Source: Mycobacteriales bacterium
Lineage (GTDB): Bacteria; Actinomycetota; Actinomycetes; Mycobacteriales; SCTD01
Assembly: GCA_030447385.1 (NCBI GenBank)
Contig: JAUJOY010000003.1
Coordinates: 144,292 to 208,291 of the forward strand
Direction: 5' to 3'
DNA length: 64,000 bases
This document shows positions 2,071 to 46,709 of this stretch, in pieces. The position numbers were made by a program, and so were the translations under genes. Below the pieces are notes generated by a model. That model had not been told where the DNA came from and ran no database searches. It worked only from the letters and a program-made list of their open reading frames with translations. Positions within the stretch are counted from its first letter, which is position 1, and each line of letters begins with the position of its first letter.

Positions 2071-2094
2071 GGAAGCGGCGCGGCTGCAGGCTTG
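2071..2094. terminator. GC-rich hairpin between the convergent hydrolase and grdA genes (candidate bidirectional terminator)
   Basis: CGGCTGCAG-gcttgg-CTGCAGCCG, a 9-bp perfect stem with a 6-nt loop, lying in the 88-nt gap between two stop codons. There is no clear U-tract. Confidence 0.4.
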
Positions 2095-2109
2095 GCTGCA
2101 GCCGGCCGC

Positions 2110-2559
2110 TCAGGCCTGCATCGAGCGCACGGCGGCCGTCAAGGCCTCGGCGTCGAGCACGTCGGCCATCAGCCCGATCTGCTCTTCCCAGACGTCGTCC
2201 GGCACCTCAGCCTTCACGGCGTCGTCAAGCACGTGGTACACCTCGAGGCCCAACTGGACCCCTGCCAAGGCACCTGCATAAGCCGGATCCCCCTTGATCA
2301 CCGTCTCGGCTGAGATCTCGGCGGCCTCCGGATCGGGGGCCCCGAGCAGCACGACCAGTGCACTGGGGTCGTTGGCTTTAGTGAGCCGGAGGATGGCCTC
2401 CTGGCTCTGCAGGTCCATGGCTCCTGACGCCGTTCAAACGAAGCACTCGGTGGCCATGAAGGCCACCTCGGCTCCGGCCGCCTTGGCGCAGGCCGCGATG
2501 GCCGTCCCCGAGATGCCGTCACGCTCTCCGAGAGCGATGACCTTCCGGTCCTGGAGCAT
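2110..2559 (-). CDS. grdA: Glycine/sarcosine/betaine reductase complex selenoprotein A (GrdA); in-frame TGA at 2434..2436 read as selenocysteine
   Basis: ATG at 2559 is preceded by GGAAGGAGG. The translation is [61 protein letters not shown]...[23 protein letters not shown]... The CFV-U-TA(A/S)GAMDL core and the AGxLAGVxLGLxVYH block match GrdA as I remember it. The ORF track only shows the part after the TGA (2110..2418). Confidence 0.88.
2386..2424 (-). promoter_or_regulatory. Candidate SECIS-type stem-loop downstream of the grdA UGA
   Basis: Starting 9 nt after the TGA: GGAG-CC-AUGG ... CCAU-C-CUCC (long-range stem). An alternative local hairpin is CC(A)GGAGG-ccau-CCUCCGG. Hand-folded only. 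Confidence 0.35.
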
Positions 2560-2562
2560 GGG

Positions 2563-2904
2563 CTAACTCACCTCCTTCCGCTGCTCGTCCAGCCACGTGT
2601 TCAGTCCTTCCGGCGACAGCGAAGGGTCGGAGAGCCGACCTACTTCCTCACCGTCACGGAACAACAAGAAGGCGGGGAGGCCCATGATGCCGAGCTCCAT
2701 GCACAGCCGACGGGCCTTGGGCGCTTCTACCTTGATCACCCTCATGTCGCCGGCGTACTTCTCGGCGAGAGCCTCGACGTGGGGGAGGAGCACCTTGCAG
2801 GGCTGACACTGGGGTCCCCACACGTCGACGAGCACGGTGCCTTCGGAGACCAGGTCGCGAAAGTCGCTTCCCGTCGCGTCCACAATGCCGGCGGAGCCGG
2901 TCAT
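2563..2904 (-). CDS. Thioredoxin-family protein (CQPC active site) embedded in the grd operon
   Basis: MTGSAGIVDATGSDFRDLV...VLVDVWGPQCQPCKVL...; 113 aa. Its ATG overlaps the grdC stop (ATGA at 2901..2904) and its stop lies 3 nt before the grdA ATG. The longer ORF-track version (to 3051) is an R/P/G-rich extension overlapping grdC. Confidence 0.85.
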   Translation of the reverse strand: MTGSAGIVDATGSDFRDLVSEGTVLVDVWGPQCQPCKVLLPHVEALAEKYAGDMRVIKVEAPKARRLCMELGIMGLPAFLLFRDGEEVGRLSDPSLSPEGLNTWLDEQRKEVS

Positions 2905-4325
2905 GCCGACACCTGATTCCGTTCCAGCATCACGCTCATCCCATCCGACAACTGGCACATCCTGCCGAGGAACAGGCTGCCCTTGGCGATCAGCATTACC
3001 CGGTCTGCCGACCCGGCCGTCAGCCGGTCCAGCGCGTGCGGAACGTAGCACAGCGACGAGGCCAGATGACCTTGCGTCGGGCTGTAGCCGGGCATCCCGC
3101 GTTCGGCGACGAAGGCGGCGATGTCGTCCTTGGCGATGTCCCCTCTGCGGGCGGCGAGGGCCGCGATCGTGCGGTAGTTCCGCTCCGGGACGTTGCCGCT
3201 GCCCTGGGGCTCGGTCAGCTCAGGGTTGTGCAGCTCCGTGGCGTAGTCGTCGACGGCCGTCATCGGCATGCCCAGGCCCGCCAGGGGCTTCACCACCAGC
3301 GCCTCCATCACCTGCGGATTGGAGCCGCCTGCGGACACCGGATGCCTGCCGACGCTGTCCAGCCGGACGCGGGGGGAGGAGCCGTCGTCGGCCTCGACGA
3401 TCATCGCCGTCCCACCGAGCAGATCTTCCAGCACGGGCATGTTGTTCTTCAGATGCCCCTGGAACTTCATCCCGAGCTTGGCCATGGAACCCCCGGCGAC
3501 GACCGCCACCCGGCCGAAGACCCCGGCCGACACGAGGCTGGCGGCGATGACCATCGCGGGAACGGGCGCGGCGCAGAAGTTCTTGACGTCGGCTCCCGAC
3601 GCCTGGCTGAGCCCGGCTGCGGCCGCGACGGCCTTGGCCATGTTGCCGCCGCCTCGCTGGTATCGGTCGCCGATGGCTTCCTCGCCGCAGCCAAGGACGT
3701 AGTCGACGGACGCCGGGTCGATGCCGGCGCTCTCGAGCAGGTGCAGCAGCGCTAACGTGGCAGTCGCCTTGGCCGCCAGATTGTCCAGCAGTACGTGGGC
3801 GCCGAGCGCCTCGTCGTCCACGTCTCCGCACCGGAAGGCGGCGCCGCCGCCGATCACGCTCAGGGCACCGGGCTCGGCCGCCGCCGCGTCCACGTCACCG
3901 CCGGCGCGCTCCACCCGTTCGAGGTCCAGCCGCTTGGCGAGCGGGTGGCGAGCCAGGTCAGCGGCGGCGCGCGCGACCGCGTCGTCGGAGAGGGTGAGCA
4001 GGTTGAAGTCGTCAACGCCCGCCAAAAGCCCGAGGAACTCCGCTTCCGGCATGATCTCGCCCGAGCGGCTCCAGCGGGAAGCACCCTCGGCTGCGGCGTC
4101 ACCCCACCAGGGACGGACCGGCAGGTCGCGCGGGTGCAGCGCGTTCACGTAGGCCTGGTTGGCGGGATAGGCGACCGCATCATCGAAGCTGCGCAACGCC
4201 GAGGTGAACTGGGCCGCCACCTCGTCGGACTTGGCCAGCTCCCGGCGGGGCTTGGAGCCATGCCGAGCCAAGGAGGGCACGTGGGCCAGCACCTGGCTGC
4301 TGCCCGAGATCACCACCTTAGGCAT
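2901..4325 (-). CDS. grdC: Glycine reductase complex protein C, beta subunit (GrdC, thiolase/KAS-like)
   Basis: MPKVVISGSSQVLAHVP..., ...FDDAVAYPANQAYV..., GCGEEAIGDRYQRGGGNMAKAVA, VKNFCAAPVPAM (acyl-Cys region), ...KGSLFLGRMCQLSDGMSVMLERN. These blocks match GrdC as I recall it. The start overlaps the grdB stop by 8 nt. Confidence 0.85.
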   Translation of the reverse strand: MPKVVISGSSQVLAHVPSLARHGSKPRRELAKSDEVAAQFTSALRSFDDAVAYPANQAYVNALHPRDLPVRPWWGDAAAEGASRWSRSGEIMPEAEFLGLLAGVDDFNLLTLSDDAVARAAADLARHPLAKRLDLERVERAGGDVDAAAAEPGALSVIGGGAAFRCGDVDDEALGAHVLLDNLAAKATATLALLHLLESAGIDPASVDYVLGCGEEAIGDRYQRGGGNMAKAVAAAAGLSQASGADVKNFCAAPVPAMVIAASLVSAGVFGRVAVVAGGSMAKLGMKFQGHLKNNMPVLEDLLGGTAMIVEADDGSSPRVRLDSVGRHPVSAGGSNPQVMEALVVKPLAGLGMPMTAVDDYATELHNPELTEPQGSGNVPERNYRTIAALAARRGDIAKDDIAAFVAERGMPGYSPTQGHLASSLCYVPHALDRLTAGSADRVMLIAKGSLFLGRMCQLSDGMSVMLERNQVSA

Positions 4326-5664
4326 GGTCCGCCCCTGCGGCTGCGGCCACCGGCATCTTCGGCGGCGTGGAGGAACGAGCCTGGCCGGCCTCGAAGACCG
4401 TGGGCTCGTCCACCGCGGTCTGCAGCGCCTCGAGGGCACAGTCGACGAGCTGGCGGCGCCACCGCTTCTCCGCGTCCGCGTCGAGCGAGGGGTCTCCCGT
4501 GGGATACGGGATGCCCCGGGTGCGCACGATGCGGGGCGCCCCCACCCGCTCGGCGATCGACACCAGATTGCAGAGCAGCGCCGTGGGGATCCCGGCCCGC
4601 TCCAACTCCTTCGCTAGCGTTGACCCGCAACGCGTTCCCGTACCTCAAGTGGCGGTCAGGATCGCGGCCCGCGCGCCGGAGCGGCGCAGGTCGGCGGCCC
4701 ACTCGACGCCGAAGCGGCGGGCATTGGCCACCGAGGTGCCGTTACCCGTGGTGACGAAGTACTCCCCGAGCAGCCCGCCGATCGCTCCCTCGGCCTCGAG
4801 CTCGCGCGCCGCGTCGAGGGGCAGGATGCGGTGAGGGTCCTCGTTCGCCCAGGCCGTCGAGAAGCCGCCGTGCACCGACATGTAGTCCCCAGGCGCCAGG
4901 GCGTCGCGGTCCTCGAGGGGGTAGCGGAGCCACTTCGTGGCACGGGCGGACTCGAGGCCGTCGGGGTTGTCGGCGACGACCAGCCCGCCTTCGGAAACGA
5001 GGGCGAGCATCACCGTGGAGGCGTCCGCAACCGGCGCCGCCGGCGTGACCCGGTCGAAGCGGGGCAGGGGGATCTCGGTCGCGGCCGCATCGCCGCCGAG
5101 CCGGGCAAGTGCCAGGTCGACGGCGCGCGTTGCCGCGTTGTCGTCGGTCACGACCGTCAGTCGCGCCGCTGCGCCGATGCGCCCGTCCTCGGCGGTCAGC
5201 GTCTCGCCGGCGAGCAGGCGCCGGATGCCGGCGGCCAGACGCTCGAGGGAGGGGGCCATCCTCCGGGCCACCTCCCCGCTGGCCACCACGGGCGCCGCGC
5301 CGGCCTCGTCCAGCCCAGGGTTGTCCTCGTGCATCGAGGCCACACTGGCCACGCCTGCCTGGTGGGCAGCGGCCACTACCCGGGCGCAGGCCAGGCCGTA
5401 GCGGCCGCTGGTGAACGCCGGACCTGCGACCACCAGGTCCGGGTCGGCCGAGCGCACCAGGCCGACGATCTCGTCGACCTTGTCCGCCGCCACGTCGTCC
5501 CCGCACCACACGGTGGCCACGATCTCGTGCTCGGGCGCCACCAGCTCGGCCAGACGCCGGCCGGGGCCTGAGGGACCGTCGAGCAGGAGCGGCCCGGTTC
5601 CCGCGGAATCCTCACCACCGACGCCGGCGAAGAACTGGTTGATGTAGTGCACGATCCTGGCCAT
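4318..5664 (-). CDS. grdB: Substrate-specific selenoprotein B subunit of a Grd-type reductase (GrdB/GrdF/GrdH family); in-frame TGA at 4645..4647 read as selenocysteine
   Basis: GGAGG lies 8 nt upstream of the ATG at 5664. The N-terminus is MARIVHYINQFFAGVGGED (typical GrdB). ORF 4645..5679 ends ...ARAAILTAT-TGA, and the same frame continues GTGTRCGSTLAKELERAGIPTALLCNLVSIAERVGAPRIV...GDPSLDADAEKRWRRQLV... (ORF 4318..4605). The TGA sits in the conserved (S/A)T-U-GT.TRCG motif. Confidence 0.88.
4617..4633 (-). promoter_or_regulatory. Candidate bacterial SECIS hairpin for the grdB UGA
   Basis: On the coding strand, 11 nt after the TGA: GCGUUG-cgggu-CAACGC. This is a 6-bp perfect stem with a 5-nt G/U-containing loop, and the spacing matches that of the E. 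coli fdhF-type element. Confidence 0.5.
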
Positions 5665-5714
5665 GACGGACACCTCCAACAGCGATCCAGGCCCATCAGG
5701 CCGAAGGGTAAACC

Positions 5715-6968
5715 TCAGCCGGAGCGGGCGGCAATGCGGCCCCAGCCGAGCGGACTGAGAGCGCAGTAGACCACGGCAGTGGGCACCTCGAACGATGCCG
5801 CCGCCGGCGCCTTCACCAGGGCGAACTGCTCCCCGCCGTACGCCTTCTCCATCTCCGGCAGGTGCAGGACATGGTCGTAGTTGCCCGTGCTGACCATCGC
5901 CGTGGCCCGCTCGGGTGCCACGACCACCGAGGGGCCGGTGCCATCGACGCCGGCCATCTCGGCGTAGAGGCCGACGGGTTGGATGCCGAGGTCGACGAGC
6001 GCGTCCATCTTCAAGGCCACGTCGGCGTCGGCGTTACCGCCGCCCTCCTTGGTGACGATGGCGGCGTCGAAGCCGGCGGCGGCACACACCTTCGCGGCGA
6101 ACAGGGAGATCAGCTCCTTGGCGCCCTGCTCGACGGGCTCCGGACAGATGACCAGGCCCGCGAACTCCACGTCGTTGCCGTGCCGGCGCCGCAGCTCATC
6201 GACGACCGGATGGTTCTGGTGCATGAAGGTCGGGTTCTTCAGGGCCGGGTGGCCGAACTGCCCACTCACCACTGCACCGTCGTCGAGCTCACCGGGATCG
6301 AGCAGGGTGGGCAAGCCGGCGCCGAAGCTGCGCCCGTAGACGAAGACGTCCTTGAACGAGCCCTGGGTCTGCAGGTTGGTGACGACGCCGATCCGGGGCA
6401 GGTCCCCGCCCCTGGCCCCGGCTGAGGGCGAGGGAAGCTCTTCGACGGCGTCAGGGGCCGCGTCCAGGGACGCCTCTGCCAGTGCGGCCGCCAGCCGAAG
6501 CGCGCCGCGGCGCAGCGCCGCGTCCACCCGTTCCCACTGTGCTCCCTGCGCGGGGGTGAACTCGACGACCAGGTTGTGCGTCGCGCCCAGCGGCGACAGC
6601 GCCGCCGCCGGCCCGCTGAGGTCGACCAGCGCCTCTTGAGCCCGCGGCAGGAACCCTGCCGTGACCACGGTGGCGCCTCGCAACACGTGCGTCTCGCCGC
6701 TGCCCTGCGGGCGGGCGGGACCGACGAAGCCGGGAAAGATGCCACCCCCGCCGGGCCCCTTGCTCCGTGGCTCGACGGCGTCGAGGACCTTGACGATGCG
6801 GGCGCTCTGGCCGGGCGAGACCCACGAGAGCTCCACGGCGGCCAGTGCCTCGTCGGCCAGCAGACCGCGGGCCTGCTCGGCCGAGACGGTCAGCACCCCG
6901 TCGGCGAAGCTCGTCCGCTGTCCGAAGCCGACCTCCCGGACCTGATGCACCAGCCTGGTGAGCGCCAC
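5715..6968 (-). CDS. grdE: GrdE/GrdG/GrdI-family subunit of Grd-type reductase protein B (possibly the unprocessed, GrdI-like type)
   Basis: ...ARIVKVLDAVEPRSKGPGGGGIFPGFVGPARPQGSGETHVLRGATVVTAG... and ...HQNHPVVDELRRRHGNDVEFAGLVI... match GrdE blocks. The GTG at 6968 gives an N-terminus (V)ALTRLVHQVREVGFG that is colinear with clostridial MRLE.G.IFIKD.QFG. An alternative ATG lies at 7001. Confidence 0.8.
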   Translation of the reverse strand: MALTRLVHQVREVGFGQRTSFADGVLTVSAEQARGLLADEALAAVELSWVSPGQSARIVKVLDAVEPRSKGPGGGGIFPGFVGPARPQGSGETHVLRGATVVTAGFLPRAQEALVDLSGPAAALSPLGATHNLVVEFTPAQGAQWERVDAALRRGALRLAAALAEASLDAAPDAVEELPSPSAGARGGDLPRIGVVTNLQTQGSFKDVFVYGRSFGAGLPTLLDPGELDDGAVVSGQFGHPALKNPTFMHQNHPVVDELRRRHGNDVEFAGLVICPEPVEQGAKELISLFAAKVCAAAGFDAAIVTKEGGGNADADVALKMDALVDLGIQPVGLYAEMAGVDGTGPSVVVAPERATAMVSTGNYDHVLHLPEMEKAYGGEQFALVKAPAAASFEVPTAVVYCALSPLGWGRIAARSG

Positions 6969-7125
6969 GTGCGCATACTGCCACCCCGGCCCGGGTGGCA
7001 TGGTTCTCGTCGTCCCTGTCCGGTCCCTCGCTCCCCCTGGGCCACGTGCGTCACCCGAGCTCGTGACCGGTCGCCGATGACTTTCCGTACACCGTCCGGT
7101 CATAGTGTCCAACCGGGAGGAAGCC

Positions 7126-8531: not shown

Positions 8532-8833
8532 GCCGGCGGACGCTCAGGCGCGGCTCCCAGCCAGGTGAGCGTGGTGTCCGCGGGCCTGGATGGCGACGAG
8601 CGCGTCAGCAGCGCCCCGGAGCACGCCGCTTCCACCCGCCATGTGCAGCCCCTGCCGGAGCCTCGGCCGGGCCTGCTGGGCGGCGCCCGGCCAATCACCA
8701 GTAATGCCCGTCCTTTCGAGCCGGAAACCCGTTTCCGGCATCGTGGACTTTTCTCGCAGACAGGCGGAAGGTGTGCCCTGCGCCGCCGCCCTTCCGGACC
8801 CCCCGCCAGAGAGCGCGACGCAGGAGCTGCCCG

Positions 8834-9499
8834 ATGGATGCTGCCGCCGCACTCGAGACCCACGACCTGCCGACGGCCATGTGCGCGCCGCACGAGATGG
8901 CGTTCACGGCATTGGACGACGCGGAGGGAGGCGCCTTCGCCGCCGTCGCCTGGTGCTCCGCGCACCTGGTCGCCGCCCATCGGGTGCTCTATGCAGAGGC
9001 CGCCAAGCGGCTGCCCGACGGCGCACGGCGGGTCCGCGTGCAGCGGGCGGTCGACCACCGGCTCGAGCAGGCGGTGTGCCGGCTGGACCGCAAGCTCACC
9101 GGCGACACGCACCTGTGCGGGACGTCCGTCACCGAGCTCGCGGAACAGGTGCGGGCGGTGCTGAGCGAGCACGCGGCGACGGAGGCCGAGCTGGTGGCCG
9201 ACCTGATGGGCATCCTGGACGAGCAGGAGCAGGAGCAGGTCGCCACGCGCCTGGCAAAGGCGATGCGGTGCGCCCCCACCCGGCCGCATCCGCACACCCG
9301 CCACATGCCGCTCGGCGGCCTGGTCTCCCGGCTGGACGCGTGCATCGACCGGGCTCGCGACCTCATGGACAACCGCGTCGTCCCGACGCCCTACAACGCC
9401 CGAGCCCCCCGCACTCCCGGGCGCTGGGCGTGCTACCTGATGGGGACGCCCTACCCGACGGCTCCCGTGCACGAGGTGAGCGAGCGGGCGCAGGCCTGA
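8834..9499 (+). CDS. Hypothetical protein, possibly hemerythrin-like (HHE cation-binding type) domain
   Basis: MDAAAALETHDLPTAMCAPHEMAF...; helical, His/Glu/Asp-rich, with a ...APTRPHPHTRHMP... segment that I associate with actinobacterial hemerythrin-like proteins. Assigned from memory only. Confidence 0.5.
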   Translation: MDAAAALETHDLPTAMCAPHEMAFTALDDAEGGAFAAVAWCSAHLVAAHRVLYAEAAKRLPDGARRVRVQRAVDHRLEQAVCRLDRKLTGDTHLCGTSVTELAEQVRAVLSEHAATEAELVADLMGILDEQEQEQVATRLAKAMRCAPTRPHPHTRHMPLGGLVSRLDACIDRARDLMDNRVVPTPYNARAPRTPGRWACYLMGTPYPTAPVHEVSERAQA

Positions 9500-9592
9500 G
9501 GGCTGCCCCCCGGACCCGTCCCCGCCGAACCTGCCCCCGCCGGTCATGGAGTTGCTGCACACCCACACGCCTGCGCTCCGGGCACCCACTCC

Positions 9593-10180
9593 GTGATCAG
9601 CGCGAACGGGTGGAGGCGGCCGCTGGTCCTGCTCGACGTCGACGGGGTCCTCAACGCCGTCCCCTACTTCGGCCGGTCCGAGGCGTGGTCGGACTGGCAG
9701 GTCGGTGAGGCCGCCGCTGCCGGCTCCCGGTTCCGGATCACCTGGTCACCCTCGGTCGTCGACGCCGTCCTGTCGTGGCGGGAGGTGGCCGAGGTGCAGT
9801 GGCTGACGACCTGGGGGCGCGACGCGAACGCCTCCCTCCGGCACCTCGTCGGCCTGCCCGAGCTGCCCGTCGCCGGCACCCACGACGAGGTCGTGGCGCC
9901 GCCCGGCACCGGTGATCCCGAGGCCGGGACGCTCGCAGCGCTCACCCCGGCCGCTCCCGACCCGCTCACCGGGCGGTGGTGGAAGTTCGACGTGGTCCGC
10001 CGGCTCGTGCACGACGACCCGGACCGGCGGCTGGTCTGGATCGACGACGACCTCGCCCGGCAGGAGGACATCCGGGCGTGGATGCGGCGCGAGGCGCAGT
10101 GCCTGCTCGTGGCCCCTGAGCCGTCCTCGGGGCTGACCCCGGCGCATCTGGAGAGCGTGGACATCTTCCTGCGCAGCTGA
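9593..10180 (+). CDS. HAD-superfamily hydrolase-like protein
   Basis: GTG start. HAD motif I is LLDVDGVLN and the late acidic motif is VWIDDDL. 195 aa. Confidence 0.6.
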   Translation: MISANGWRRPLVLLDVDGVLNAVPYFGRSEAWSDWQVGEAAAAGSRFRITWSPSVVDAVLSWREVAEVQWLTTWGRDANASLRHLVGLPELPVAGTHDEVVAPPGTGDPEAGTLAALTPAAPDPLTGRWWKFDVVRRLVHDDPDRRLVWIDDDLARQEDIRAWMRREAQCLLVAPEPSSGLTPAHLESVDIFLRS

Positions 10181-10362
10181 CCGCGTCCGGCCCGCTCGGC
10201 GCCCGGACCCGCGGCGCCGGACCGCCAGCCGGGTCGCCCAGCCCGGTGCTCGCCGGCGGGGGGTGGCAAGCCCGGGCCCCTGGATCCACAGGACTGCGCC
10301 GCTGCGCACGAAGCACCTTCTGCAGCGGGGACAACGAGGTACAAAGGCGCCGTGTACTTCCC

Positions 10363-13300
10363 GTGCTGAGGCTGCACCGCGCCGAGCGCGCCGACGTGCT
10401 GGCCGACGCGCTGGCGCAGGTGCTCGCGCAGCCGTTGCCGGATCCGTTCGCTGCCGAGGTCGTGGCCGTTCCCGCAAAGGGTGTCGAGCGCTGGCTGACC
10501 CAGCGGCTGTCGACGGTCCTCGGGGCTGCTTCAGGCGGGGGGGACGGAGTCGCCGGCAACCTCCGCTTCCCCAGCCCCGCACGGCTCGTCGAGGAGTGCG
10601 TCGTGGCCGGCAGCGACGTCGTCCCCGAGGACGACCCGTGGGCGCCGGCGAGGCTGCTGTGGCGACTGCTGGAGGTGATCGACGACTGCCTCGACGAGCC
10701 GTGGTGCAGCGTCCTCTCGCGGCATCTGGGTCGGGGTGAGGACGAAGCGCGTGCCGGTCGCCGCTACGCCACCGCCGAGCACCTGCGCGACCTGTTCCGC
10801 TCCTACTCCGCGCACCGCCCGGCGATGCTCGTCGACTGGGCTGCCGGCATCGACTCGGACGGCGCGGGCCGGCCGATGGCCCCGGACCTGGCCTGGCAGG
10901 CGGAGCTGTGGCGGCGGCTGCGTACGTCCCTGGACGCGCCCAGTCCGGCAGAGCGGCTGGACGAGACCTGCGCGCGCCTGCGGGACGAGCCGCACTGCAG
11001 CGACCTGCCCGAGCGGCTGTCGCTGTTCGGCGCGACGCGGCTCACGACCGAGCAGCGCGCTGTCCTGCGGGCCCTCGGGGAACACCGCGACGTGCACCTG
11101 TGGCTGCCGCACCCGAGCCCTGCGATGTGGGCGGTGCTGCAGGAGGCGCCCGCGACCTCCCGCCGCCGTCAGGACCAGACCGTGCTGAAGGTCGGCAACC
11201 CGCTGCTGGCGAGCCTTTCCCGTGACACCCGCGAGCTCCAGCTGCTGCTTGCGGGAGTGCCCGAGACGCATCACGCCGCAGCGCACGAGCCGGACACCCT
11301 GCTCGCCGCACTGCAGGCCTCGATCCGCAACGACGCCGCGGATCCCGCGGCCGCCCGGCCGGACGGCACCGTCCAGGTCCATGCCTGTCACGGGCCGCCG
11401 CGCCAGGTGGAGGTCCTGCGCGAGGCCCTGCTTCACCTGTTCCAGCAGGACGGCACCCTCGAGCCACGCGACGTCCTGGTGATGTGCCCGGACGTCGAGA
11501 CCTACGCGCCACTGATCCGCGCCGCCTTCGGTCAGCCGGGTGCGGCCCACCCGGGGCACCGCCTGCGGGTACGCCTCGCCGACCGCTCGTTGCGCCGGAC
11601 CAACCCGCTGCTGGACACCCTGGCCGGCCTGCTGGCGCTTGCCGACGGCCGCGTGACCGCCAGCGAGGTGTTGGACCTGGCGGCCAGCGCCCCCGTACGC
11701 CGGCGCTTCGGGTTCTCCGAGGACGACCTGGAGCGGCTGCAGGACTGGGCCGCCCGGGCGAATGTGCGGTGGGGGCTCGGGCGGCAGCAGCGCGAGGCGT
11801 ACGCGCTCGGCGGGGTGCCGCAGAACACCTGGGACACCGGTCTCGACCGCATCCTGCTCGGGGTCGCCGCGGACGAGAGCGAGCTCGGCTGGCTCGGCCT
11901 CGCGCTGCCGCTCGACGACGTGGACAGCAGCGACATCGACCTCACGGGTCGGGCGGCGGAGCTGGTCGACCGGCTCGACCGGGTGCTGCGCCGGCTCCAG
12001 GGCACGGAGCCGGTCTCAGGCTGGTTCGACGCGCTGAGCGAGGCGCTCGACCTGCTCACCGAGGTGCCCGAGGACGACGCCTGGCAGCTCGCTCAGGCAC
12101 GTCGTCAGCTGGCCGAGGCCGCGGAGCACGGGCCCGACGTGGTGCTGCGGCTGGCGGACGTCCGCGCGCTGCTCGCCAGCCGCCTCGCGGGGCGCCCGAC
12201 CCGCGCGAACTTCCGCACCGGCGAGCTCACCGTGTGCACGATGGTGCCGATGCGCTCGGTGCCGCATCGCGTCATCGCCCTGCTCGGGCTCGACGACGGC
12301 GTGTTCCCACGCACCGGCGGTGTGGACGGTGACGACGTCCTGCAGCGCGACCCGTGCCTCGGCGAGCGCGACCCGCGCAGCGAGGACCGCCAGCTGCTGC
12401 TCGACGCGGTGATGTCGGCGGGGAGCCACCTGCTGCTGCTCTACACCGGTGCCGACCCGGTCACCGGGGCGACCCGCCCGCCGGCGGTGCCGCTCGGCGA
12501 GCTGCTCGACGCCGTGCGCGCCGGCGTCGGGATGGACGCGATGGCGGAGGTCGTCTCCCGTCATCCGCTGCAGCCCTTCGACGCCCGCAGCTTCCGGCCC
12601 GCCGCGCCGTTCAGCTTCGACCGCGCTGCCCTGGCGGGGGCGGTCGCCTCGGCCGCACCGCGCACGCCGGAGCCGCCGTTCCTGCCGGAGCCGCTGCCCG
12701 AACGCCCTGCCGACGTCGCACTGGCCGAGCTCGTCGCGTTCCTCGTCCACCCTCCGCGAGCCTTCCTGACCCGCCGCGTCGGCGTGCACGTCCCCGACCG
12801 GGAGGCGTCGGTCGCCGATGCGCTGCGCGCCGAGCTGGACCCTCTGCAGAAGTGGGAGGTCGGGGACCGCATGCTCGCGGCCCGGCTCGCCGGGGTGGGG
12901 GTGTCCGAGTTCGTCCAGGCGGAGTGGCGACGCGGCACGCTGCCCCCCGGACCGCTCGGGATGCGCCTGCTCGACGAGCTGGAGCGGGCGGTCGAGCCGC
13001 TGGTCGCTGCCGCTGCGCAGATCCAGGTCGGGGCACCCCGCTCGCTCGACGTCGTCGTCGAGCTCGGCGCCGGCCGGCGCCTCATGGGCACGGTGAACGG
13101 GATCTACGGCGAGGTGCTGGCCGGCACGTCGTACTCCAGGTTGGCCCCCAAGCACCGCCTCTCCGCATGGGCCGGACTGCTCGCCGCCGCCTGCTGTGGA
13201 GCGGACGCGCCCGCGACAGCGGTGACCACCGGTCGCGGGCCGCACAAGAGGCCGGTGTGGCGCTCGGTCCTCCGCGTGCCGCCGGCGCCCTTCGACGTCC

Positions 13301-13617
13301 TGCGCGATCTCGTCGCGCTGTACGACGAGGGCATGCGCGAGCCGCTGCCGGTAGCTCCCGGCGCCTCGCACGAGTACGCCACGCGGCGGCAGCGGGGGAA
13401 CAGCGCTCCGGAGGCGCTGGAGGCCGCGAGCAAGGAGTGGGACTCGCGGTACGGCGACAGCACGGACCGCCACCTGGCCTATGTGCACGGCGCCGGTGCG
13501 TCCTTCTGCGGCCTCACCGCGGCTGGCGCCCCCGGGGAGGAGACGACCCGCTTCGGTGCGCTTGCGCGGCGGCTGTGGGGACCCCTGCTGGCCGTCGAGG
13601 TCCTGGGCGCGCCATGA
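10363..13617 (+). CDS. recC: Exodeoxyribonuclease V gamma subunit (RecC)
   Basis: ~1084 aa. The N-terminus (V)LRLHRAERADVLADALAQVL is typical of RecC. It is followed by recB and recD with overlapping stop/start codons. The start is uncertain (the ORF opens at 10246). Confidence 0.85.
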   Translation: MLRLHRAERADVLADALAQVLAQPLPDPFAAEVVAVPAKGVERWLTQRLSTVLGAASGGGDGVAGNLRFPSPARLVEECVVAGSDVVPEDDPWAPARLLWRLLEVIDDCLDEPWCSVLSRHLGRGEDEARAGRRYATAEHLRDLFRSYSAHRPAMLVDWAAGIDSDGAGRPMAPDLAWQAELWRRLRTSLDAPSPAERLDETCARLRDEPHCSDLPERLSLFGATRLTTEQRAVLRALGEHRDVHLWLPHPSPAMWAVLQEAPATSRRRQDQTVLKVGNPLLASLSRDTRELQLLLAGVPETHHAAAHEPDTLLAALQASIRNDAADPAAARPDGTVQVHACHGPPRQVEVLREALLHLFQQDGTLEPRDVLVMCPDVETYAPLIRAAFGQPGAAHPGHRLRVRLADRSLRRTNPLLDTLAGLLALADGRVTASEVLDLAASAPVRRRFGFSEDDLERLQDWAARANVRWGLGRQQREAYALGGVPQNTWDTGLDRILLGVAADESELGWLGLALPLDDVDSSDIDLTGRAAELVDRLDRVLRRLQGTEPVSGWFDALSEALDLLTEVPEDDAWQLAQARRQLAEAAEHGPDVVLRLADVRALLASRLAGRPTRANFRTGELTVCTMVPMRSVPHRVIALLGLDDGVFPRTGGVDGDDVLQRDPCLGERDPRSEDRQLLLDAVMSAGSHLLLLYTGADPVTGATRPPAVPLGELLDAVRAGVGMDAMAEVVSRHPLQPFDARSFRPAAPFSFDRAALAGAVASAAPRTPEPPFLPEPLPERPADVALAELVAFLVHPPRAFLTRRVGVHVPDREASVADALRAELDPLQKWEVGDRMLAARLAGVGVSEFVQAEWRRGTLPPGPLGMRLLDELERAVEPLVAAAAQIQVGAPRSLDVVVELGAGRRLMGTVNGIYGEVLAGTSYSRLAPKHRLSAWAGLLAAACCGADAPATAVTTGRGPHKRPVWRSVLRVPPAPFDVLRDLVALYDEGMREPLPVAPGASHEYATRRQRGNSAPEALEAASKEWDSRYGDSTDRHLAYVHGAGASFCGLTAAGAPGEETTRFGALARRLWGPLLAVEVLGAP

Positions 13618-16600
13618 GCTTCGACCTCTACGGCGAGCTGCCGCGGGGCACGTCGGTCCTCGAGGCCAGCGCCGGCACGGGCAAGACCTGGACGATCGCG
13701 GCGCTCGCCACGCGCTACGTCGCCGAAGGTGTGGCCGAGCTGTCGGACCTGATGCTCGTCACGTTCGGGCGGGCCGCCACGCAGGAGCTGCGCGAGCGCG
13801 TACGCGAGCGGCTCGTCTCCACCGTGCGCGGGCTCGGACGCGACGGCGACGACCCGCTGGTGAAGCACCTGTCAAGGGCGGGGCCGGAGGAGGTGCAGCT
13901 GCGGCGGCAGCGCCTTCTCCGGGCGCTGTCGCAGTTCGATGCCGCCACCATCGCGACGACGCACAGCTTCTGCGAGCAAGTCCTGAAGGGGCTCGGCTTC
14001 GCCGGGAACGCCGATCCCGGGGCCACCCTCGTCGAGTCGGTCGACGACCTGCTGCGTGAGGTGGTCGACGACCTCTATCTGCGCAAGTTCGCCGTGCACA
14101 CGGCTGCGCCGCCGGCGATCACCGCGGGCGAAGCGAGAGAGGCCGCGCGGGCGGCGATGCGGGACCGCCAGGCCCGGCTCGAGCCGGCATCGGCCGACCC
14201 GGCGTCCGGGCCCGGTCAGCGGGTGGGGATCGCCCGCGCGGCGTGCGTCGAGCTCGCCCGGCGCAAGAGCGCGGCGGGCATCCGGGACTTCGACGACCTG
14301 CTGTTCCTGCTGCGCGACGTGCTGGTCGACCCGGCCTCCGGGCAGGCGGCCTGCGCTCGGCTGCGGGCGCGCTACCGCGTGGTGCTCGTCGACGAGTTCC
14401 AGGACACCGACCCGGTGCAGTGGGAGATCCTGCGCGTTGCGTTCCACGGCCACGCCGCGCTGGTCCTGATCGGCGACCCCAAGCAGGCGATCTACGCCTT
14501 CCGGGGAGCGGAGGTGCTCAGCTACCTGTCCGCCGTGCGCGAGGCCGACCGGCACGAGACGCTCGCCACCAACTGGCGCAGCGATGACGGACTGCTGCGC
14601 GCCCTGGACCACCTCTACGGCGGCGCTTCACTCGGCCACCGGCAGATCGTCGTCCGTCCGGTCGTGGCAGCGCACGCCGCCCGGCGTCTCGGTGATGGTG
14701 CTCCGCTGCGCCTGCGGGTGCACCCCCGCACGGGTTCCGGGCCGCTCGGGAAGAGCGGTTTCCCGGCGGTCGCGGCACTGCGCGAGACGGTTGCCGCTGA
14801 CGTGGCCGCCGACGTCGTACGCCTCCTGCACAGCGGCACCTCGCTCCGTCACCAGGGCGGGTCCCGGCCGGTACGTCCAGGCGACGTCGCGGTGCTCGTA
14901 CGCCGGCACGTGCAGGCGGCGGCCGTGCAGGCGGCGCTGGACCGAGCCGACGTGCCCTCGGTGATGTCGAGCAGCACGAGTGTCTACGCCACCCCCAGCG
15001 CGCGCGACTGGCTGTGGCTGCTGCACGCCCTCGAGCAGCCGCACCGAGCGGCACGGGTACGCCTTGCGGCGCTGACGCCGCTGCTCGGCTGGACCGCGCC
15101 ACGCCTCGACGCGGCGGGGGACTCCGGCACGGACGAGGTGGGGGCCCTGCTGCGCGAGGCGGCGCAGCTGTTCGAGCAGGCGGGCCTGGCCGCCGTGTTC
15201 GAGCGGTTCTCGGCGCGTACCCGCCTCGACAGCCGGCTGCTCGCTCAGGAGGGAGGCGAGCGGCGGCTGACCGACCTGCGACACCTCGCGCAGTCGCTGA
15301 ACCGCGCTGCGGTCGAGGGCTCGCTCGGGCTCGCGGCGCTGGTCAGCTGGCTGTCCGAGCGCGTGGAGGACCCGGAGGCGGCAAGCCTGTCCGACCGCAG
15401 CCGGCGGCTGGAGAGCGACGCTGCGGCGGTGCAGGTCGTCACGGTGCACGCCAGCAAGGGGCTGGAGTTCCCGATCGTCTACGTGCCCTACGGGTGGGAC
15501 GGCGCGAAGAACCCGTCCTCGACGACCCTGCGGCTCCACGACCCCGACGGCGCACGGGTGCTGGACATCGGCGGCAAGGACGGGCCCGGGTGGGCGCAGC
15601 GCAAGAAGACGGCTGACGTCGAGGACGACGGCGAGGAGCTGCGCCTGCTCTACGTCGCACTGACCCGGGCGCAGTGCCAGGTCGTCCTGTCCTGGGCACC
15701 GGGAGCGGTCACCGCCGGAGCCCCGCTGCACCGGCTGCTGCTGGGGCGCACGCAGGGCGAGCCCGCCCCGTCCGCGCGCGCGGCCGTTCCCGAGGACGCA
15801 GCTGCGCTCACCCGGCTCGCCGCGTGGGGGTGGCCGGAGGAGATCTCGGTGGAGCCGGTCGGAGCCGTCGCTGCGGTTCGCTGGCAGCCGGACCAGGAGG
15901 AGCCGGGGTCGCTGGCGGCGGCGCGATTCGACCGGACGCTCGACATGGCCTGGCGGCGCACGTCCTACTCGGCCCTCACCTCGACGGTGCACGACGCTCC
16001 GCGCGTCGGCAGCGAGCCCGAGGAGCCAGAGACGACCGACGAGCCGGCGTCCTCCTTCTCCCTGGCAGAGGACCTGACGCCGGCCGGGCCGCCGTCCCCG
16101 ATGAACGGCCTGGCCGGCGGCGCCGCCTTCGGCACGCTCGTCCACGGCGTGCTGGAGGCCGTCGACACCGCCGCGGACGACCTGCCCGCGGAGCTCCTCG
16201 GGCGATGCCGTGCCGCGGTGGCCTCCCGGCTGTCGTCGGCGGAGCCGGCCGCACTGGCCGCTGCGCTGCTCGCGGTGCTGCGGACCCCGCTGGGGTTCGG
16301 CACGCTCGCAGAGGTCGCCCCGGCCGACCGGCTGGTGGAGATGGACTTCGAGCTGCCGCTCGCCGGGGGCGAGGACCCCACGAGCTCACCGGTCCTGCTG
16401 CACGACATCGCCGGACTGCTGCGGCGCCACCTGCCGGCGGACGACCTCCTCCTGCCCTACGCCGACCTGCTGCAGACGGTGGACGCGCTCCCGCTGCGCG
16501 GCTACCTGTCGGGCAGCATCGACGCGGTGCTGCGGCTGCCGGGACCGGCCTACCTCGTCGTGGACTACAAGACCAACCGGCTCGGGCGGGGCGACCTGAC

Positions 16601-16868
16601 CGCGCTGCACTACACGCGCGAGGCGATGGCCGCGGAGATGCTGCGCGCGCACTACCCCTTGCAGGCGCTGCTCTACTGCGTCGCCCTGCACCGGTTCCTG
16701 CGGTGGCGCGAGCCCGGCTACGACCCGGCGGTGCACCTGGCAGGCGCGCAGTACCTGTTCCTGCGGGGGATGGTCGGGCCGGCCACCCCGACCGGCTGCG
16801 GAGTCTTCGACTGGAGGGTGCCGGCCGAGCTCGTGGTGGCCCTGTCCGACCTGCTGGCCGGGTCATGA
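13614..16868 (+). CDS. recB: Exodeoxyribonuclease V beta subunit (RecB), UvrD-like helicase plus PD-(D/E)XK nuclease
   Basis: MSFDLYGELPRGTSVLEASAGTGKTWTIAAL (Walker A), VLVDEFQDTD, and the C-terminal nuclease motif GSIDAVLRL...LVVDYKTN. The ATG overlaps the recC stop (ATGA). The ORF-track frame is open from 12354, but that part is R/P-rich shadow. Confidence 0.9.
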   Translation: MSFDLYGELPRGTSVLEASAGTGKTWTIAALATRYVAEGVAELSDLMLVTFGRAATQELRERVRERLVSTVRGLGRDGDDPLVKHLSRAGPEEVQLRRQRLLRALSQFDAATIATTHSFCEQVLKGLGFAGNADPGATLVESVDDLLREVVDDLYLRKFAVHTAAPPAITAGEAREAARAAMRDRQARLEPASADPASGPGQRVGIARAACVELARRKSAAGIRDFDDLLFLLRDVLVDPASGQAACARLRARYRVVLVDEFQDTDPVQWEILRVAFHGHAALVLIGDPKQAIYAFRGAEVLSYLSAVREADRHETLATNWRSDDGLLRALDHLYGGASLGHRQIVVRPVVAAHAARRLGDGAPLRLRVHPRTGSGPLGKSGFPAVAALRETVAADVAADVVRLLHSGTSLRHQGGSRPVRPGDVAVLVRRHVQAAAVQAALDRADVPSVMSSSTSVYATPSARDWLWLLHALEQPHRAARVRLAALTPLLGWTAPRLDAAGDSGTDEVGALLREAAQLFEQAGLAAVFERFSARTRLDSRLLAQEGGERRLTDLRHLAQSLNRAAVEGSLGLAALVSWLSERVEDPEAASLSDRSRRLESDAAAVQVVTVHASKGLEFPIVYVPYGWDGAKNPSSTTLRLHDPDGARVLDIGGKDGPGWAQRKKTADVEDDGEELRLLYVALTRAQCQVVLSWAPGAVTAGAPLHRLLLGRTQGEPAPSARAAVPEDAAALTRLAAWGWPEEISVEPVGAVAAVRWQPDQEEPGSLAAARFDRTLDMAWRRTSYSALTSTVHDAPRVGSEPEEPETTDEPASSFSLAEDLTPAGPPSPMNGLAGGAAFGTLVHGVLEAVDTAADDLPAELLGRCRAAVASRLSSAEPAALAAALLAVLRTPLGFGTLAEVAPADRLVEMDFELPLAGGEDPTSSPVLLHDIAGLLRRHLPADDLLLPYADLLQTVDALPLRGYLSGSIDAVLRLPGPAYLVVDYKTNRLGRGDLTALHYTREAMAAEMLRAHYPLQALLYCVALHRFLRWREPGYDPAVHLAGAQYLFLRGMVGPATPTGCGVFDWRVPAELVVALSDLLAGS

Positions 16869-18703
16869 GGGCGCTGCTCGCCTCCGGGCTGCTGGCCGAC
16901 TTCCACGACGCCGGGGTCCTGGCCGCGGCCGATGTCCACGTCGCCCGGCGGCTCGGGGCCCTGGCCCGCGAGGGCGCCGAGGAGGTGCTGCTCGCGGTCG
17001 CCCTGGCCGTGCGCGCCGTGCGCCTCGGGTCGACGTGCCTGGAGCTCGACCGGATGCGCCAGGTCGCGGTGGACGAGGAGCACGATGTCGACGTCTCGAC
17101 CCTGCCGTGGCCGGAGCCCGACGCCCTGCAGAGGGCGCTGCGCAGCAGCCCGCTGGTCACCGGCGCCGCAGGGGCGACCCTCCGGCCGCTGCGGCTCGCG
17201 GAGACTGACGGGGGCCCGCTGCTCTACCTCGACCGCTACTGGCGACAGGAGCAGTCCGTACGCCGGCAGCTCGACGACCGCGCGCTGACCCGGCCCCCGG
17301 CCGATCTCGAGGCGGTGCGGCGGCGGATCGCGGAGCTGTTCCCGGACCCGTCCGCGCCGGACCGTCAGCGCATCGCTGTGGCGCTCGCGGCGACGAGGTG
17401 GACCACGATCCTCGCGGGCGGGCCCGGCACGGGCAAGACGACCACGGTCGGGCGGGTGCTCGCCCTGCTCGACCGGCCGGGGCTGCGGGTGGCGCTGGCG
17501 GCTCCGACCGGCAAGGCCGCCGCTCGGCTGCAGGAGTCCGTGCGGGAGCAGGCACCCGGTCTGGGGCTGCCGGCGGAGCTCACCGCGACGACGCTGCACC
17601 GGCTCCTCGGCTGGCGGGCCGACAGCAGGACCCGGTTCCGCCACGACAGCGCCAACCGACTCCCGTACGACGTCGTCGTGGTCGACGAGACCTCGATGGT
17701 GTCGCTGACGATGATGGCCCGGCTGCTCGACGCCGTGCGGCCGGACACGCGGCTGATCCTCGTGGGCGACCCCGACCAGCTGACGTCGGTGGATGCCGGA
17801 GCCGTTCTCGCCGACCTGGTGGCGCGGCCGGTCCGGGCCGCCCCCGATGCGGCGCTCGCGCAGCTGGTGGGAGCGGATCTGGCCGGCGCGGACGACGCCG
17901 CCGAGACCGGCCTGGACCCGCAGGAGCGGTCGCGGCTGGCGAACGGCGTCGTACGGCTGACCCGTGGTCGCCGCTTCGGCGGGACGATCGCGCGGCTCGC
18001 CGTGGCGGTGCGCCTCGGCGACGCGGACCTCGCGCTGGAGCTGCTGCGGAGCGGGGCGTCGGACGTCTCCTTCGTCGAGCCGGGCGACGTCGAGGCGGTG
18101 CGTCAGGACGTCGTGTCCTGCGGGCAGGGGGTGACGGAGGCGGCGGCCGGCGGCCGGGTCGAGCTGGCGCTCGCGCGGCTGGAGGAGCACCGCCTGCTGT
18201 GCGCCCACCGGCGCGGCCCCTACGGCGTGACCGCATGGGACCGGCGGGCCGGGGAGTGGGTGGCCACCGCCCTCCGGCGGGCTCCGGAGCAGGCGCGCTG
18301 GTACGCCGGTCAGCCGCTGCTCGTGACGAAGAACGACCACGAGGCCCGGATCTACAACGGTGACACGGGAGTCGTCGTGGAGACCGGCGGGGGCGACCTG
18401 GTCGCGGCGTTCTCGCGGGGCGCCACACCCGTGCTCCTCCCGGTGGGGCGGCTCTCCGACGTCCAGACGGTCTACGCGATGACGATCCACCGGAGCCAGG
18501 GCAGTCAGTACGAGACGGTGTCGGTCGTGCTCCCGCCTCCGACGTCGTCACTGCTCACGCGGGAGCTGCTCTACACCGCGATCACCCGTGCCCGCAGGCA
18601 TGTTCGCGTGGTCGGCACCGCCGAGACCGTACGCGCCGCGATCGACCGGCAGGTGCTGCGGGCCAGCGGCTTGCGGCGGGTGGTGAGCGGAGCGGACGCC
18701 TGA
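16865..18703 (+). CDS. recD: Exodeoxyribonuclease V alpha subunit (RecD)
   Basis: MRALLASGLLADFHDAGVL..., GGPGTGKTTTV (Walker A), VVVDETSMV, YAMTIHRSQGSQY. The ATG overlaps the recB stop (ATGA). Confidence 0.9.
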   Translation: MRALLASGLLADFHDAGVLAAADVHVARRLGALAREGAEEVLLAVALAVRAVRLGSTCLELDRMRQVAVDEEHDVDVSTLPWPEPDALQRALRSSPLVTGAAGATLRPLRLAETDGGPLLYLDRYWRQEQSVRRQLDDRALTRPPADLEAVRRRIAELFPDPSAPDRQRIAVALAATRWTTILAGGPGTGKTTTVGRVLALLDRPGLRVALAAPTGKAAARLQESVREQAPGLGLPAELTATTLHRLLGWRADSRTRFRHDSANRLPYDVVVVDETSMVSLTMMARLLDAVRPDTRLILVGDPDQLTSVDAGAVLADLVARPVRAAPDAALAQLVGADLAGADDAAETGLDPQERSRLANGVVRLTRGRRFGGTIARLAVAVRLGDADLALELLRSGASDVSFVEPGDVEAVRQDVVSCGQGVTEAAAGGRVELALARLEEHRLLCAHRRGPYGVTAWDRRAGEWVATALRRAPEQARWYAGQPLLVTKNDHEARIYNGDTGVVVETGGGDLVAAFSRGATPVLLPVGRLSDVQTVYAMTIHRSQGSQYETVSVVLPPPTSSLLTRELLYTAITRARRHVRVVGTAETVRAAIDRQVLRASGLRRVVSGADA

Positions 18704-19413: not shown

Positions 19414-20391
19414 ATGAACGAGGACGATCTGCAGCAGGCCGCGCGGGGTTCGGGCATGCGCCGCAACGTGCTGCCCTCGCTGGAGCAGGTCGAGAAGCGG
19501 CGCTTCGAGCTGTGGCTGCTGTCGACCATCCTCATGGTCGGGCTGACCCTCGGGACGGCGCTGCTGAGCATGTGGTCGCCCGCGGACCTGCACGGGCTGA
19601 TGTCCCAGCCCGTCGTGCGCTTCGGCGTCGTCGGCATGGCGCTGGTGCTCAGCGCCTACTCCATCGAGAAGGAGCGCAGCCTGCGGCGCGTCTCCCGCCT
19701 GCTGATGGACGAGCGACTGCTGACCACCGCGCTGGCGAACAGGCTGCACGAGATCACCACCCTGCTCGACGCCGGCAAGGCCGTCAACAGCACCCTCGAG
19801 CTCGACCTGGTCCTGTCCTCGATCCTCCTGGGCGCGACGGACCTCATGCCGGCCGGCGGCGGCTCGGTGATGCTGCTGGAGGGGGACGAGCTGGTCGTGG
19901 CGGCAGCAGCCGGCAACGAGGGCGCGCTCGGCCGGCGCGCGGCGGTCGGCGACGGCATCGCCGGTCACGTGGCCCGTACGAGGGAGCCGGTGCTGCTGCA
20001 CGGCCGGGCGGCGCCGTCGATGTTCCCCGGGTTGACCAAGCGGATGCAGGAGGTCGGCAGCTCCCTGTGCGTCCCCCTCATCGAACGCGGCGACCTGCTG
20101 GGGGTGCTGAACCTCCACGCCCAAGGCGCCGCGGAGTTCTCGGAGTTCGACCTGCGCGCCGTGCGCCTGTTCGCCGAGCATGCGGCCACCGCCATCAGCA
20201 AGGCCCGGCTGTACGCGCGCAGCCAGCAGCAGGCGCAGGAGCTCGAGCACGCCGCCACCCACGACGCCCTCACCGGGATCGCCAACCGCGCCCGCCATGG
20301 ACAGGGCGGAGGACGACCGCGCCGCCCTGCTGTTCCTGGACCTCGACGGGTTCAAGCAGGTCAACGACGAGCTCGGACACGCCGCGGGTGA
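19414..20391 (+). CDS. Membrane-anchored GAF-domain sensor ending in a truncated/frameshifted GGDEF domain
   Basis: Two hydrophobic helices (LWLLSTILMVGLTLGTALL, VVRFGVVGMALVLSAY), a GAF-like core (...GGGSVMLLEGDELVV...GIAGHVARTREPVLL...SSLCVPLIERGDLLGVLNLH), then the GGDEF start ATHDALTGIANRA followed by R/G/P-rich text. Confidence 0.7.
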   Translation: MNEDDLQQAARGSGMRRNVLPSLEQVEKRRFELWLLSTILMVGLTLGTALLSMWSPADLHGLMSQPVVRFGVVGMALVLSAYSIEKERSLRRVSRLLMDERLLTTALANRLHEITTLLDAGKAVNSTLELDLVLSSILLGATDLMPAGGGSVMLLEGDELVVAAAAGNEGALGRRAAVGDGIAGHVARTREPVLLHGRAAPSMFPGLTKRMQEVGSSLCVPLIERGDLLGVLNLHAQGAAEFSEFDLRAVRLFAEHAATAISKARLYARSQQQAQELEHAATHDALTGIANRARHGQGGGRPRRPAVPGPRRVQAGQRRARTRRG

Positions 20392-39591: not shown

Positions 39592-39664
39592 GGGACCTCC
39601 AGGAGCCGGGCCTGACGGCCCGCTACGACTGTGGAGCGGCTGACCGGCCGTATCCTAGAGGGGG

Positions 39665-45273: not shown

Positions 45274-46545
<1,272 letters not shown>

Positions 46546-46709
46546 GGGTGGTCCTCCTGGAACAGCACGCGGTACGTGGCACGTCATCCTTTCCCCAGCC
46601 CGGTACCCGACACCCCGTGGGCTACCCGGTCGGGGGCCGGGCGGGGGCCAGGTGCTGCATGCGAGCCTGGTCACACCGGCTGGGATCGGCCGTGGGGCAG
46701 GATCGGGGG

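Follow-up and report, generated by a model that had tools for sequence, protein, structure and literature searches.

A probable selenocysteine codon and SECIS hairpin in grdB of a divergent reductase operon from high-GC actinobacteria

The selenocysteine insertion sequence (SECIS) of E. coli fdhF is a hairpin with a G-rich apical loop (GGUC) and a bulged U; it lies ~11 nt after the UGA, the spacing rule for E. coli being 11 nt, and acts by tethering SelB. More generally, the published model of bacterial SECIS elements (bSECISearch) calls for an upper stem of 4-16 bp that carries an apical loop of 3-9 nt (PMC13188914, Fig. 2). One or both of the first two loop nucleotides must be G, in most cases with G or U as the next base, the loop must lie 16-37 nt from the UGA, and the minimum free energy should not exceed -7.5 kcal/mol (PMC13188914). 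Here we describe an in-frame UGA followed by a SECIS-like hairpin in grdB, a gene of the GrdB/GrdF/GrdH selenoprotein B family. It lies in a stretch of 64,000 nt (hereafter the window; 73% GC) of an assembly labelled Mycobacteriales bacterium (GCA_030447385.1, contig JAUJOY010000003.1).

Among the closest described systems are the glycine/sarcosine/betaine reductase operons that hold grdF in P. acidaminophilum, grdH in E. gilvus and grdB in A. noterae. Like these canonical operons, the operon in the window encodes a component B alpha subunit, the selenoproteins B and A (the latter with a CxxU site), GrdC and a thioredoxin, and the selenocysteine (Sec) position of selenoprotein B is homologous. 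The canonical GrdB/F/H proteins share about 40% amino acid identity with that of the window. For comparison we used four canonical genes: grdF of P. acidaminophilum, grdH of E. gilvus and the grdB-like genes of A. noterae and Photobacterium (megaplasmid/chromid records).

We conclude, with a probability of about 0.9, that the UGA at 4647..4645 is a Sec codon and that the hairpin at 4633..4617 is the core of a SECIS acting in standard SelB-dependent recoding. The preliminary description of this DNA had proposed this reading, and it is now supported by the presence of TGA in 79/79 relatives, by signs that the frame beyond it is translated, by a near-complete freeze of synonymous sites in the hairpin, by homology to the Rfam family SECIS_4 and by the presence of another Sec gene, grdA, in the operon. 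The features concerned are the following:

4318..5664, minus strand: GrdB/GrdF/GrdH-family selenoprotein B gene, here grdB (translation, Pfam GRDB, TIGR01918, homologue lengths)
4645..4647, minus strand: in-frame UGA, probably read as selenocysteine, residue 340 (TGA in 79/79 loci; aligned to the UGA of annotated grdF/grdH)
4617..4633, minus strand: probable SECIS core hairpin GCGUUG-CGGGU-CAACGC (direct reading, RNAalifold consensus, pairing, synonymous entropy)
4607..4644, minus strand: stretch aligned to Rfam RF01990 SECIS_4, model positions 1-38 (19.5 bits, E 0.54)

Counting the Sec codon, grdB has 448 codons (339 aa + Sec + 108 aa). On the minus strand its frame reads ...RSGARAAILTAT up to the TGA, continues directly after it as GTGTRCGSTLAKELERAGIP... 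and stays open until the TAA at 4320..4318. The preliminary description had read ...AAILTAT, then the TGA at 4647..4645 and the same frame running on to complete a 448-aa GrdB-family protein; rereading of the minus strand and the profile scores agree with it on the stop and on the continuing frame. Its boundaries for the two parts have to be moved. The gene starts at ATG 5664 and not at TTG 5679, because GGAGG precedes the ATG by 8 nt and homologues have 339 aa up to the TGA; the C-terminal part begins at 4644, directly after the TGA, and not at the TTG of the open reading frame (ORF) 4318..4605.

With the TGA replaced by Cys, the protein scores 406.3 bits against TIGR01918, the 'glycine/betaine/sarcosine/D-proline family reductase selenoprotein B' model (cut-off 65.45), and 345.9 bits against Pfam GRDB (cut-off 22). 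Scores against the substrate-specific equivalog models stay below their cut-offs (GrdF 406.7/800, GrdB 368.9/602, GrdH 359.5/775 bits), and a PDB sequence search with GrdB found no solved relative. The UGA aligns to the UGA of the annotated grdF of P. acidaminophilum and grdH of E. gilvus. UGA also serves as an ordinary stop here: the majority of the window's long frames, those of grdC and grdA among them, terminate at TGA. Because UGA is otherwise a common stop codon in the window, we conclude that it has not been reassigned.

A scan of one genome per species yielded 80 loci with 64-96% amino acid identity, all of them in metagenome-assembled genomes labelled Acidimicrobiales, Actinomycetota or Mycobacteriales. 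The TGA site is covered in 79 of the 80, and 76 distinct sequences were used for the pair and codon counts. All 79 loci that reach the site carry TGA, followed in frame by GTGTRCG[S/A]TLAKELE..., and the downstream frame remains open for 71-157 codons in relatives. Entropies at codon positions 1/2/3 after the TGA are 0.36/0.26/1.02 bits, the signature of a translated region, and comparison of the window with its closest relative gives ratios of nonsynonymous to synonymous change (pN/pS) of 0.06-0.26 across the five operon genes. The frame downstream of the TGA is thus under purifying selection as a protein-coding sequence.

A protein search returned 1035 homologues, and those listed (120) all end at the grdB TGA codon (306-388 aa, 69-76% of the query), with the lone exception of a 760-aa entry (P0116) that joins the alpha-subunit gene to grdB and contains both Pfam domains. 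At locus L055, likewise, a single 761-aa open frame (8738..11023) spans the alpha-subunit gene and the N-terminal region of grdB.

Could this copy of grdB be a nonsense mutant or pseudogene, followed by a hairpin that GC-rich DNA produces by chance? SECIS-like hairpins do occur after about 7% of arbitrary window positions. Yet the TGA is found in all 79 relatives, purifying selection acts on the downstream frame, which is unbroken, and nowhere in the gene are synonymous sites more constrained than in the hairpin. Based on the TGA retention, the coding-pattern entropies and pN/pS, we exclude this possibility, to which we would give next to no weight.

The hairpin itself consists of a perfect 6-bp stem closed by the 5-nt loop CGGGU and is separated from the TGA by an 11-nt spacer (GGUACGGGAAC). 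Rereading of the minus strand at 4633..4617 recovered GCGUUG-CGGGU-CAACGC exactly 11 nt past the TGA, with the 6-bp stem and pentaloop first described. The accompanying claim, that spacing and loop are those expected of a bacterial SECIS, stands as well when set against the published model. Spacer and stem (11 nt + 6 nt) place the loop 17 nt from the UGA, the 5-nt loop and 6-bp stem lie within the ranges given above (in most relatives, a GGG loop sits on 7 bp), and the loop C-G-G-G-U has G at position 2 followed by G, a pattern that holds in 80/80 sequences. The energy is borderline: -5.8 kcal/mol for the 17-mer, -8.7 kcal/mol for the 45 nt after the UGA, which fold into the hairpin plus a second small stem, and -9.0 kcal/mol for the majority variant with Ala. 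Compared with the fdhF element, this is likewise a small coding-region hairpin of comparable stability (the fdhF 17-mer has -4.2 kcal/mol), whereas the sequence is dissimilar and the loop is CGGGU or GGG, without a bulged U.

How often would such a hairpin arise by chance? A perfect 6-bp stem with a loop of 3-9 nt exactly 11 nt downstream is found for 0.6% of window positions and after 4 of the 988 TGA triplets in the window; under looser SECIS-like rules, 6.6% of positions qualify. By itself, the hairpin is therefore weak evidence above chance, and its significance comes from its conservation in relatives and not from its fold.

This conservation is almost complete. The 17 nt of the hairpin are near-invariant in 80 sequences, except that CAACGC has become CGACGC twice (U-A to U.G), a terminal mismatch (G to A) has arisen once and the loop has changed once. 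The stem is paired in 99.8% of cells across the 76 distinct sequences. The RNAalifold consensus is exactly this hairpin, with no other conserved structure within 75 nt. Synonymous sites on both sides vary freely (GGN ACN GGN before, CTN GCN AAR GAR after), while those in the hairpin are frozen: mean third-position entropy over codons +4 to +9 is 0.055 bits compared to a gene mean of 0.94, the lowest of the 295 six-codon windows in grdB. Codons +4, +5, +7, +8 and +9 are the five most constrained among the 259 four-/six-fold degenerate codons of the gene.

The codons fixed in the hairpin are rare in the rest of the operon. For example, CGT is used in 76/76 sequences here compared to 9% of Arg codons in the operon, and GCA and TCA are likewise disfavoured, at 9% and 7% of the Ala and Ser codons, respectively. 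Gly is followed by Ala GCA in 58 of the 76 distinct sequences; a seventh C-G pair then closes a GGG triloop (-9.0 kcal/mol). In the window and 17 others this codon is Ser UCA, and the closing C-G pair is opened into the pentaloop CGGGU.

No covariation can be counted inside the clade because the stem does not vary. The within-clade support is therefore purifying selection at the RNA level, not covariation. The preliminary description had held that the hairpin would lose its meaning if orthologues that keep the TGA had lost or disrupted it; we find the opposite, with 99.8% pairing and almost no synonymous variation.

The hairpin also has described homologues. The window sequence aligns in register to SECIS_4, with model position 1 on 4644, the first base after the UGA, and translation of the SECIS_4 consensus GGuACcUGUACUCGUUGCGGUGCAACGAUgGUuAAAGA gives the motif of canonical GrdB, GTCTRCGATMVKE. 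The canonical genes match SECIS_4 at the equivalent position with 47-65 bits. The core CGUUGC-GGN-GCAACG, which encodes R-C-G-A-T, is common to low-GC Bacillota, Photobacterium and this 73% GC clade, and the window core is identical save for the closing C-G pair, which is C.U. The basal stem pair differs: this clade has G-C (ACG...CUN), Photobacterium A.A and the other three canonical genes U-A (ACU...AUG); relative to U-A, the change in the clade is two-sided and keeps the pairing. Two orthologues (L024, 39.3 bits; L030, 41 bits) exceed the SECIS_4 threshold, while 23 of the 25 clade loci tested fall short.

A number of observations weigh against the assignment of the hairpin as a SECIS core and of the UGA as a Sec codon. 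The window itself scores 19.5 bits against a SECIS_4 gathering score of 38. At gathering threshold, no Rfam family matched anywhere in the window, and SECIS_4 emerged only under E-value reporting. The clade has not retained the lower helix of the Rfam model (62% of cells paired; the 9-33 pair at chance). Folding energy is no different from that of shuffled sequence (z = +0.5), a comparison that is uninformative in 73% GC DNA. The minimum-energy fold of the 71-nt context omits the hairpin, and the 17-mer alone (-5.8 kcal/mol) faces a competing fold of -8.6 kcal/mol in the window's own 38 nt. No compensatory changes are seen among the 76 distinct sequences of the clade. Replacement of the UGA by a Cys codon is rare: a metagenome-wide pattern scan gave 6 hits, of which only one is a real GrdB (TGC in L086, metagenome contig Ga0214473_10314297, 699..730, minus strand). 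This sole Cys homologue (n = 1) retains the hairpin as GCGUUG-UGGGG-CAACGC, as expected for a recent Sec-to-Cys change, and it provides no natural control tying the constraint to the UGA. Finally, no tRNA-Sec, selA, selB or selD was found in the 64-kb window or beside the operon in the 80 loci.

The shuffled-level stability, the hairpin in the single Cys variant and the lack of compensatory covariation inside the clade would suit an explanation in which the UGA is a Sec codon and the hairpin is kept for another reason, e.g. mRNA stability, translational pausing or an effect of codon pairs at the active-site motif, with SelB recognising something else nearby. We regard this as very unlikely. 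The constrained synonymous sites match stem and loop exactly and end at their edges, and within 75 nt there is no further conserved structure. Moreover, the core is common to phyla of opposite GC bias, its flanking pair has changed from U-A to G-C on both sides, and the hairpin corresponds to a curated SECIS_4 element.

The search for Sec machinery combined NCBIfam models on the long ORFs of the window, motif patterns, Rfam and tRNA scans, and tblastn with E. coli SelA, SelB and SelD on the window and the 80 loci. Odd 96-nt 'tRNAs' called by ARAGORN in L024 and L040 were considered as tRNA-Sec and went unconfirmed by Rfam. Sec machinery is known in other actinobacteria, e.g. mycobacteria (bioRxiv 10.64898/2026.03.03.709296).

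With no Sec machinery in the window and a TTG-started ORF at 4318..4605, one might instead suppose SelB-independent readthrough (a near-cognate Trp, Cys or Arg, stimulated by the hairpin) or re-initiation giving polypeptides of 339 aa and about 95 aa. However, the 13 codons from the UGA to the TTG (GTGTRCGSTLAKE) are among the most conserved of the protein and include a conserved Cys, and there is no conserved ribosome-binding site or start at the TTG. The position is that of the Sec in annotated grdF and grdH, GrdA of the same operon holds a classical CxxU Sec site, and Cys replacements are extremely rare, with one in the metagenome-wide scan. We consider either form of this explanation very unlikely.

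If the UGA is indeed recoded through SelB, the sequence suggests a conventional course of events. SelB, GTP and Sec-tRNA(Sec) would bind the apical loop of the hairpin (mechanism reviewed in PMC13188914). With the UGA in the A site, the hairpin would start 11 nt downstream and its loop 17 nt downstream, at about the mRNA entrance of the ribosome. The tethered SelB would then deliver Sec-tRNA(Sec) in competition with release factor, and translation would proceed through 108 further codons, including the ...GTGTRCG... active-site stretch. We infer that SelB binds the hairpin, that Sec is actually inserted and that selA, selB, selC and selD are located elsewhere in the genome.

Both the type of element and the selenoprotein family are accordingly known, and the hairpin is a new GC-rich member mostly missed by the Rfam threshold. 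The recoding would be textbook UGA recoding and adds no new mechanism. Its consequences are for annotation and for codon usage. Gene callers stop grdB at the TGA, leaving ~339 aa in the 120 listed homologues, and the Rfam threshold overlooks the SECIS in the window and in 23/25 clade loci tested; therefore, selenoproteins B and A are likely mis-annotated across this actinobacterial clade, which a clade-aware model would repair. The embedded RNA signal also constrains the coding sequence enough to fix rare codons despite the 73% GC bias.

Around grdB, the operon comprises the following features:

5715..6968, minus strand: component B alpha-subunit homologue (GrdE/GrdG/GrdI-like), 417 aa, GTG start 6968 (Pfam Gly_reductase, 340 bits; start placed by alignment to L012)
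2901..4325, minus strand: grdC, component C beta subunit (NF040746, 542 bits, cut-off 450)
2563..2904, minus strand: thioredoxin-like gene, 113 aa, active site CQPC (Pfam Thioredoxin; clostridial TrxA model, 84 bits)
2110..2559, minus strand: grdA, selenoprotein A, 149 codons, motif ECFVU-TASGAMD (six-frame scan with TGA = U)
2434..2436, minus strand: in-frame UGA (Sec, residue 42) of grdA, the second of the operon (TGA in 71/71 grdA-holding sequences, window included)
2400..2413, minus strand: weak candidate SECIS of grdA, stem CCUG/CAGG of 4 bp, loop CAGAGC, 20 nt past the UGA (low confidence)

The ATG of grdC overlaps the stop of grdB (ATGCCTAA) and the ATG of the thioredoxin gene overlaps the stop of grdC (ATGA), an arrangement that suggests translational coupling. 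The active site of the thioredoxin reads W-G-P-Q-C-Q-P-C (CQPC) and not the usual CGPC. For grdA, a strong SECIS was sought and only the 4-bp consensus stem emerged, based on the RNAalifold consensus of 58-67 sequences and on a dip in synonymous entropy over codons +5 to +12. Neither the window nor the canonical operons gave an Rfam match for a grdA SECIS.

Beyond the hairpin, the operon departs from the canonical ones in several respects. The alpha subunit has SGQF in place of the SGNC of GrdE/GrdG, an Asn-Cys site from which the pyruvoyl group is formed; in E. gilvus, the betaine-type GrdI similarly reads SGSF. On this basis, the alpha subunit may be unprocessed, betaine-like or of a novel substrate type. 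The motif after Sec is U-G-T-G-T-R-C (UxxGxxC) in 80/80 sequences (the window, at 4624..4647 on the minus strand, and 79 loci), whereas the four canonical GrdB/F/H genes encode U-G-T-C-T-R-C (UxxCxxC). UxxCxxC after Sec has been described as a required motif (PMC6778437; motif also in PMC13188914), and its loss was treated as a sign of a pseudogene in one paper (PMC6778437).

Gene content and order differ as well. The canonical E. gilvus operon has the order trxB-trx-grdA-grdC-grdD-grdI-grdH. With canonical queries, tblastn detected no grdD, trxB or grdX, either in the window or up to about 10 kb from the operon at the 80 loci; GrdD and TrxB may be encoded elsewhere in the genome. A glycine riboswitch precedes the grd operon of A. 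noterae (L089, 2060..2158, plus strand, 59 bits), whereas an Rfam search found none in the window. At L055, genes for a GNAT acetyltransferase and an F420H2-dependent quinone-reductase-like protein are inserted between grdB and grdC (11300..12400).

The operon is apparently mobile. The nucleotide match to its nearest relatives (L002 95%, L001 92%, L003 86%) is confined to 2093..7011, that is, to the five-gene operon, and stops 17 nt past grdA and 43 nt before the start of the alpha subunit. The flanking genes of the window (alpha/beta hydrolase, BNR/sortilin-like, RecBCD) are beside the operon in 0/80 loci, and a search for terminal repeats around the cassette gave chance-level matches only. 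The confined similarity suggests cassette-like transfer or a chimeric assembly. The nearest relatives L001 and L003 are labelled 'Mycobacteriales bacterium' and nearly all others Acidimicrobiales/Acidimicrobiia, which points either to inconsistent taxonomy of the bins or to passage of the operon from one actinobacterial class to another.

Because of the UxxGxxC motif, the lack of the Asn-Cys site, of linked GrdD/TrxB and of a riboswitch, and the apparent, precise transfer of a 4.9-kb cassette, we tentatively raise the possibility, at odds well short of even, that the operon represents GrdB-type selenoenzymes of a substrate class not yet characterised, widespread among Acidimicrobiales-like actinobacteria of soil and sediment. 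We found no literature linking glycine reductase with Acidimicrobiia.

Outside the operon, the gene content of the window is that of an ordinary chromosome of a high-GC actinobacterium. A recC-recB-recD cluster lies upstream of the operon (10246..18703, plus strand), and further genes include those for a GGDEF-EAL protein (20111..22267), hrpA (39659..43393) and citrate synthase (45274..47013). The window also encodes a DinG/YoaA-like helicase and a RecQ-family helicase.

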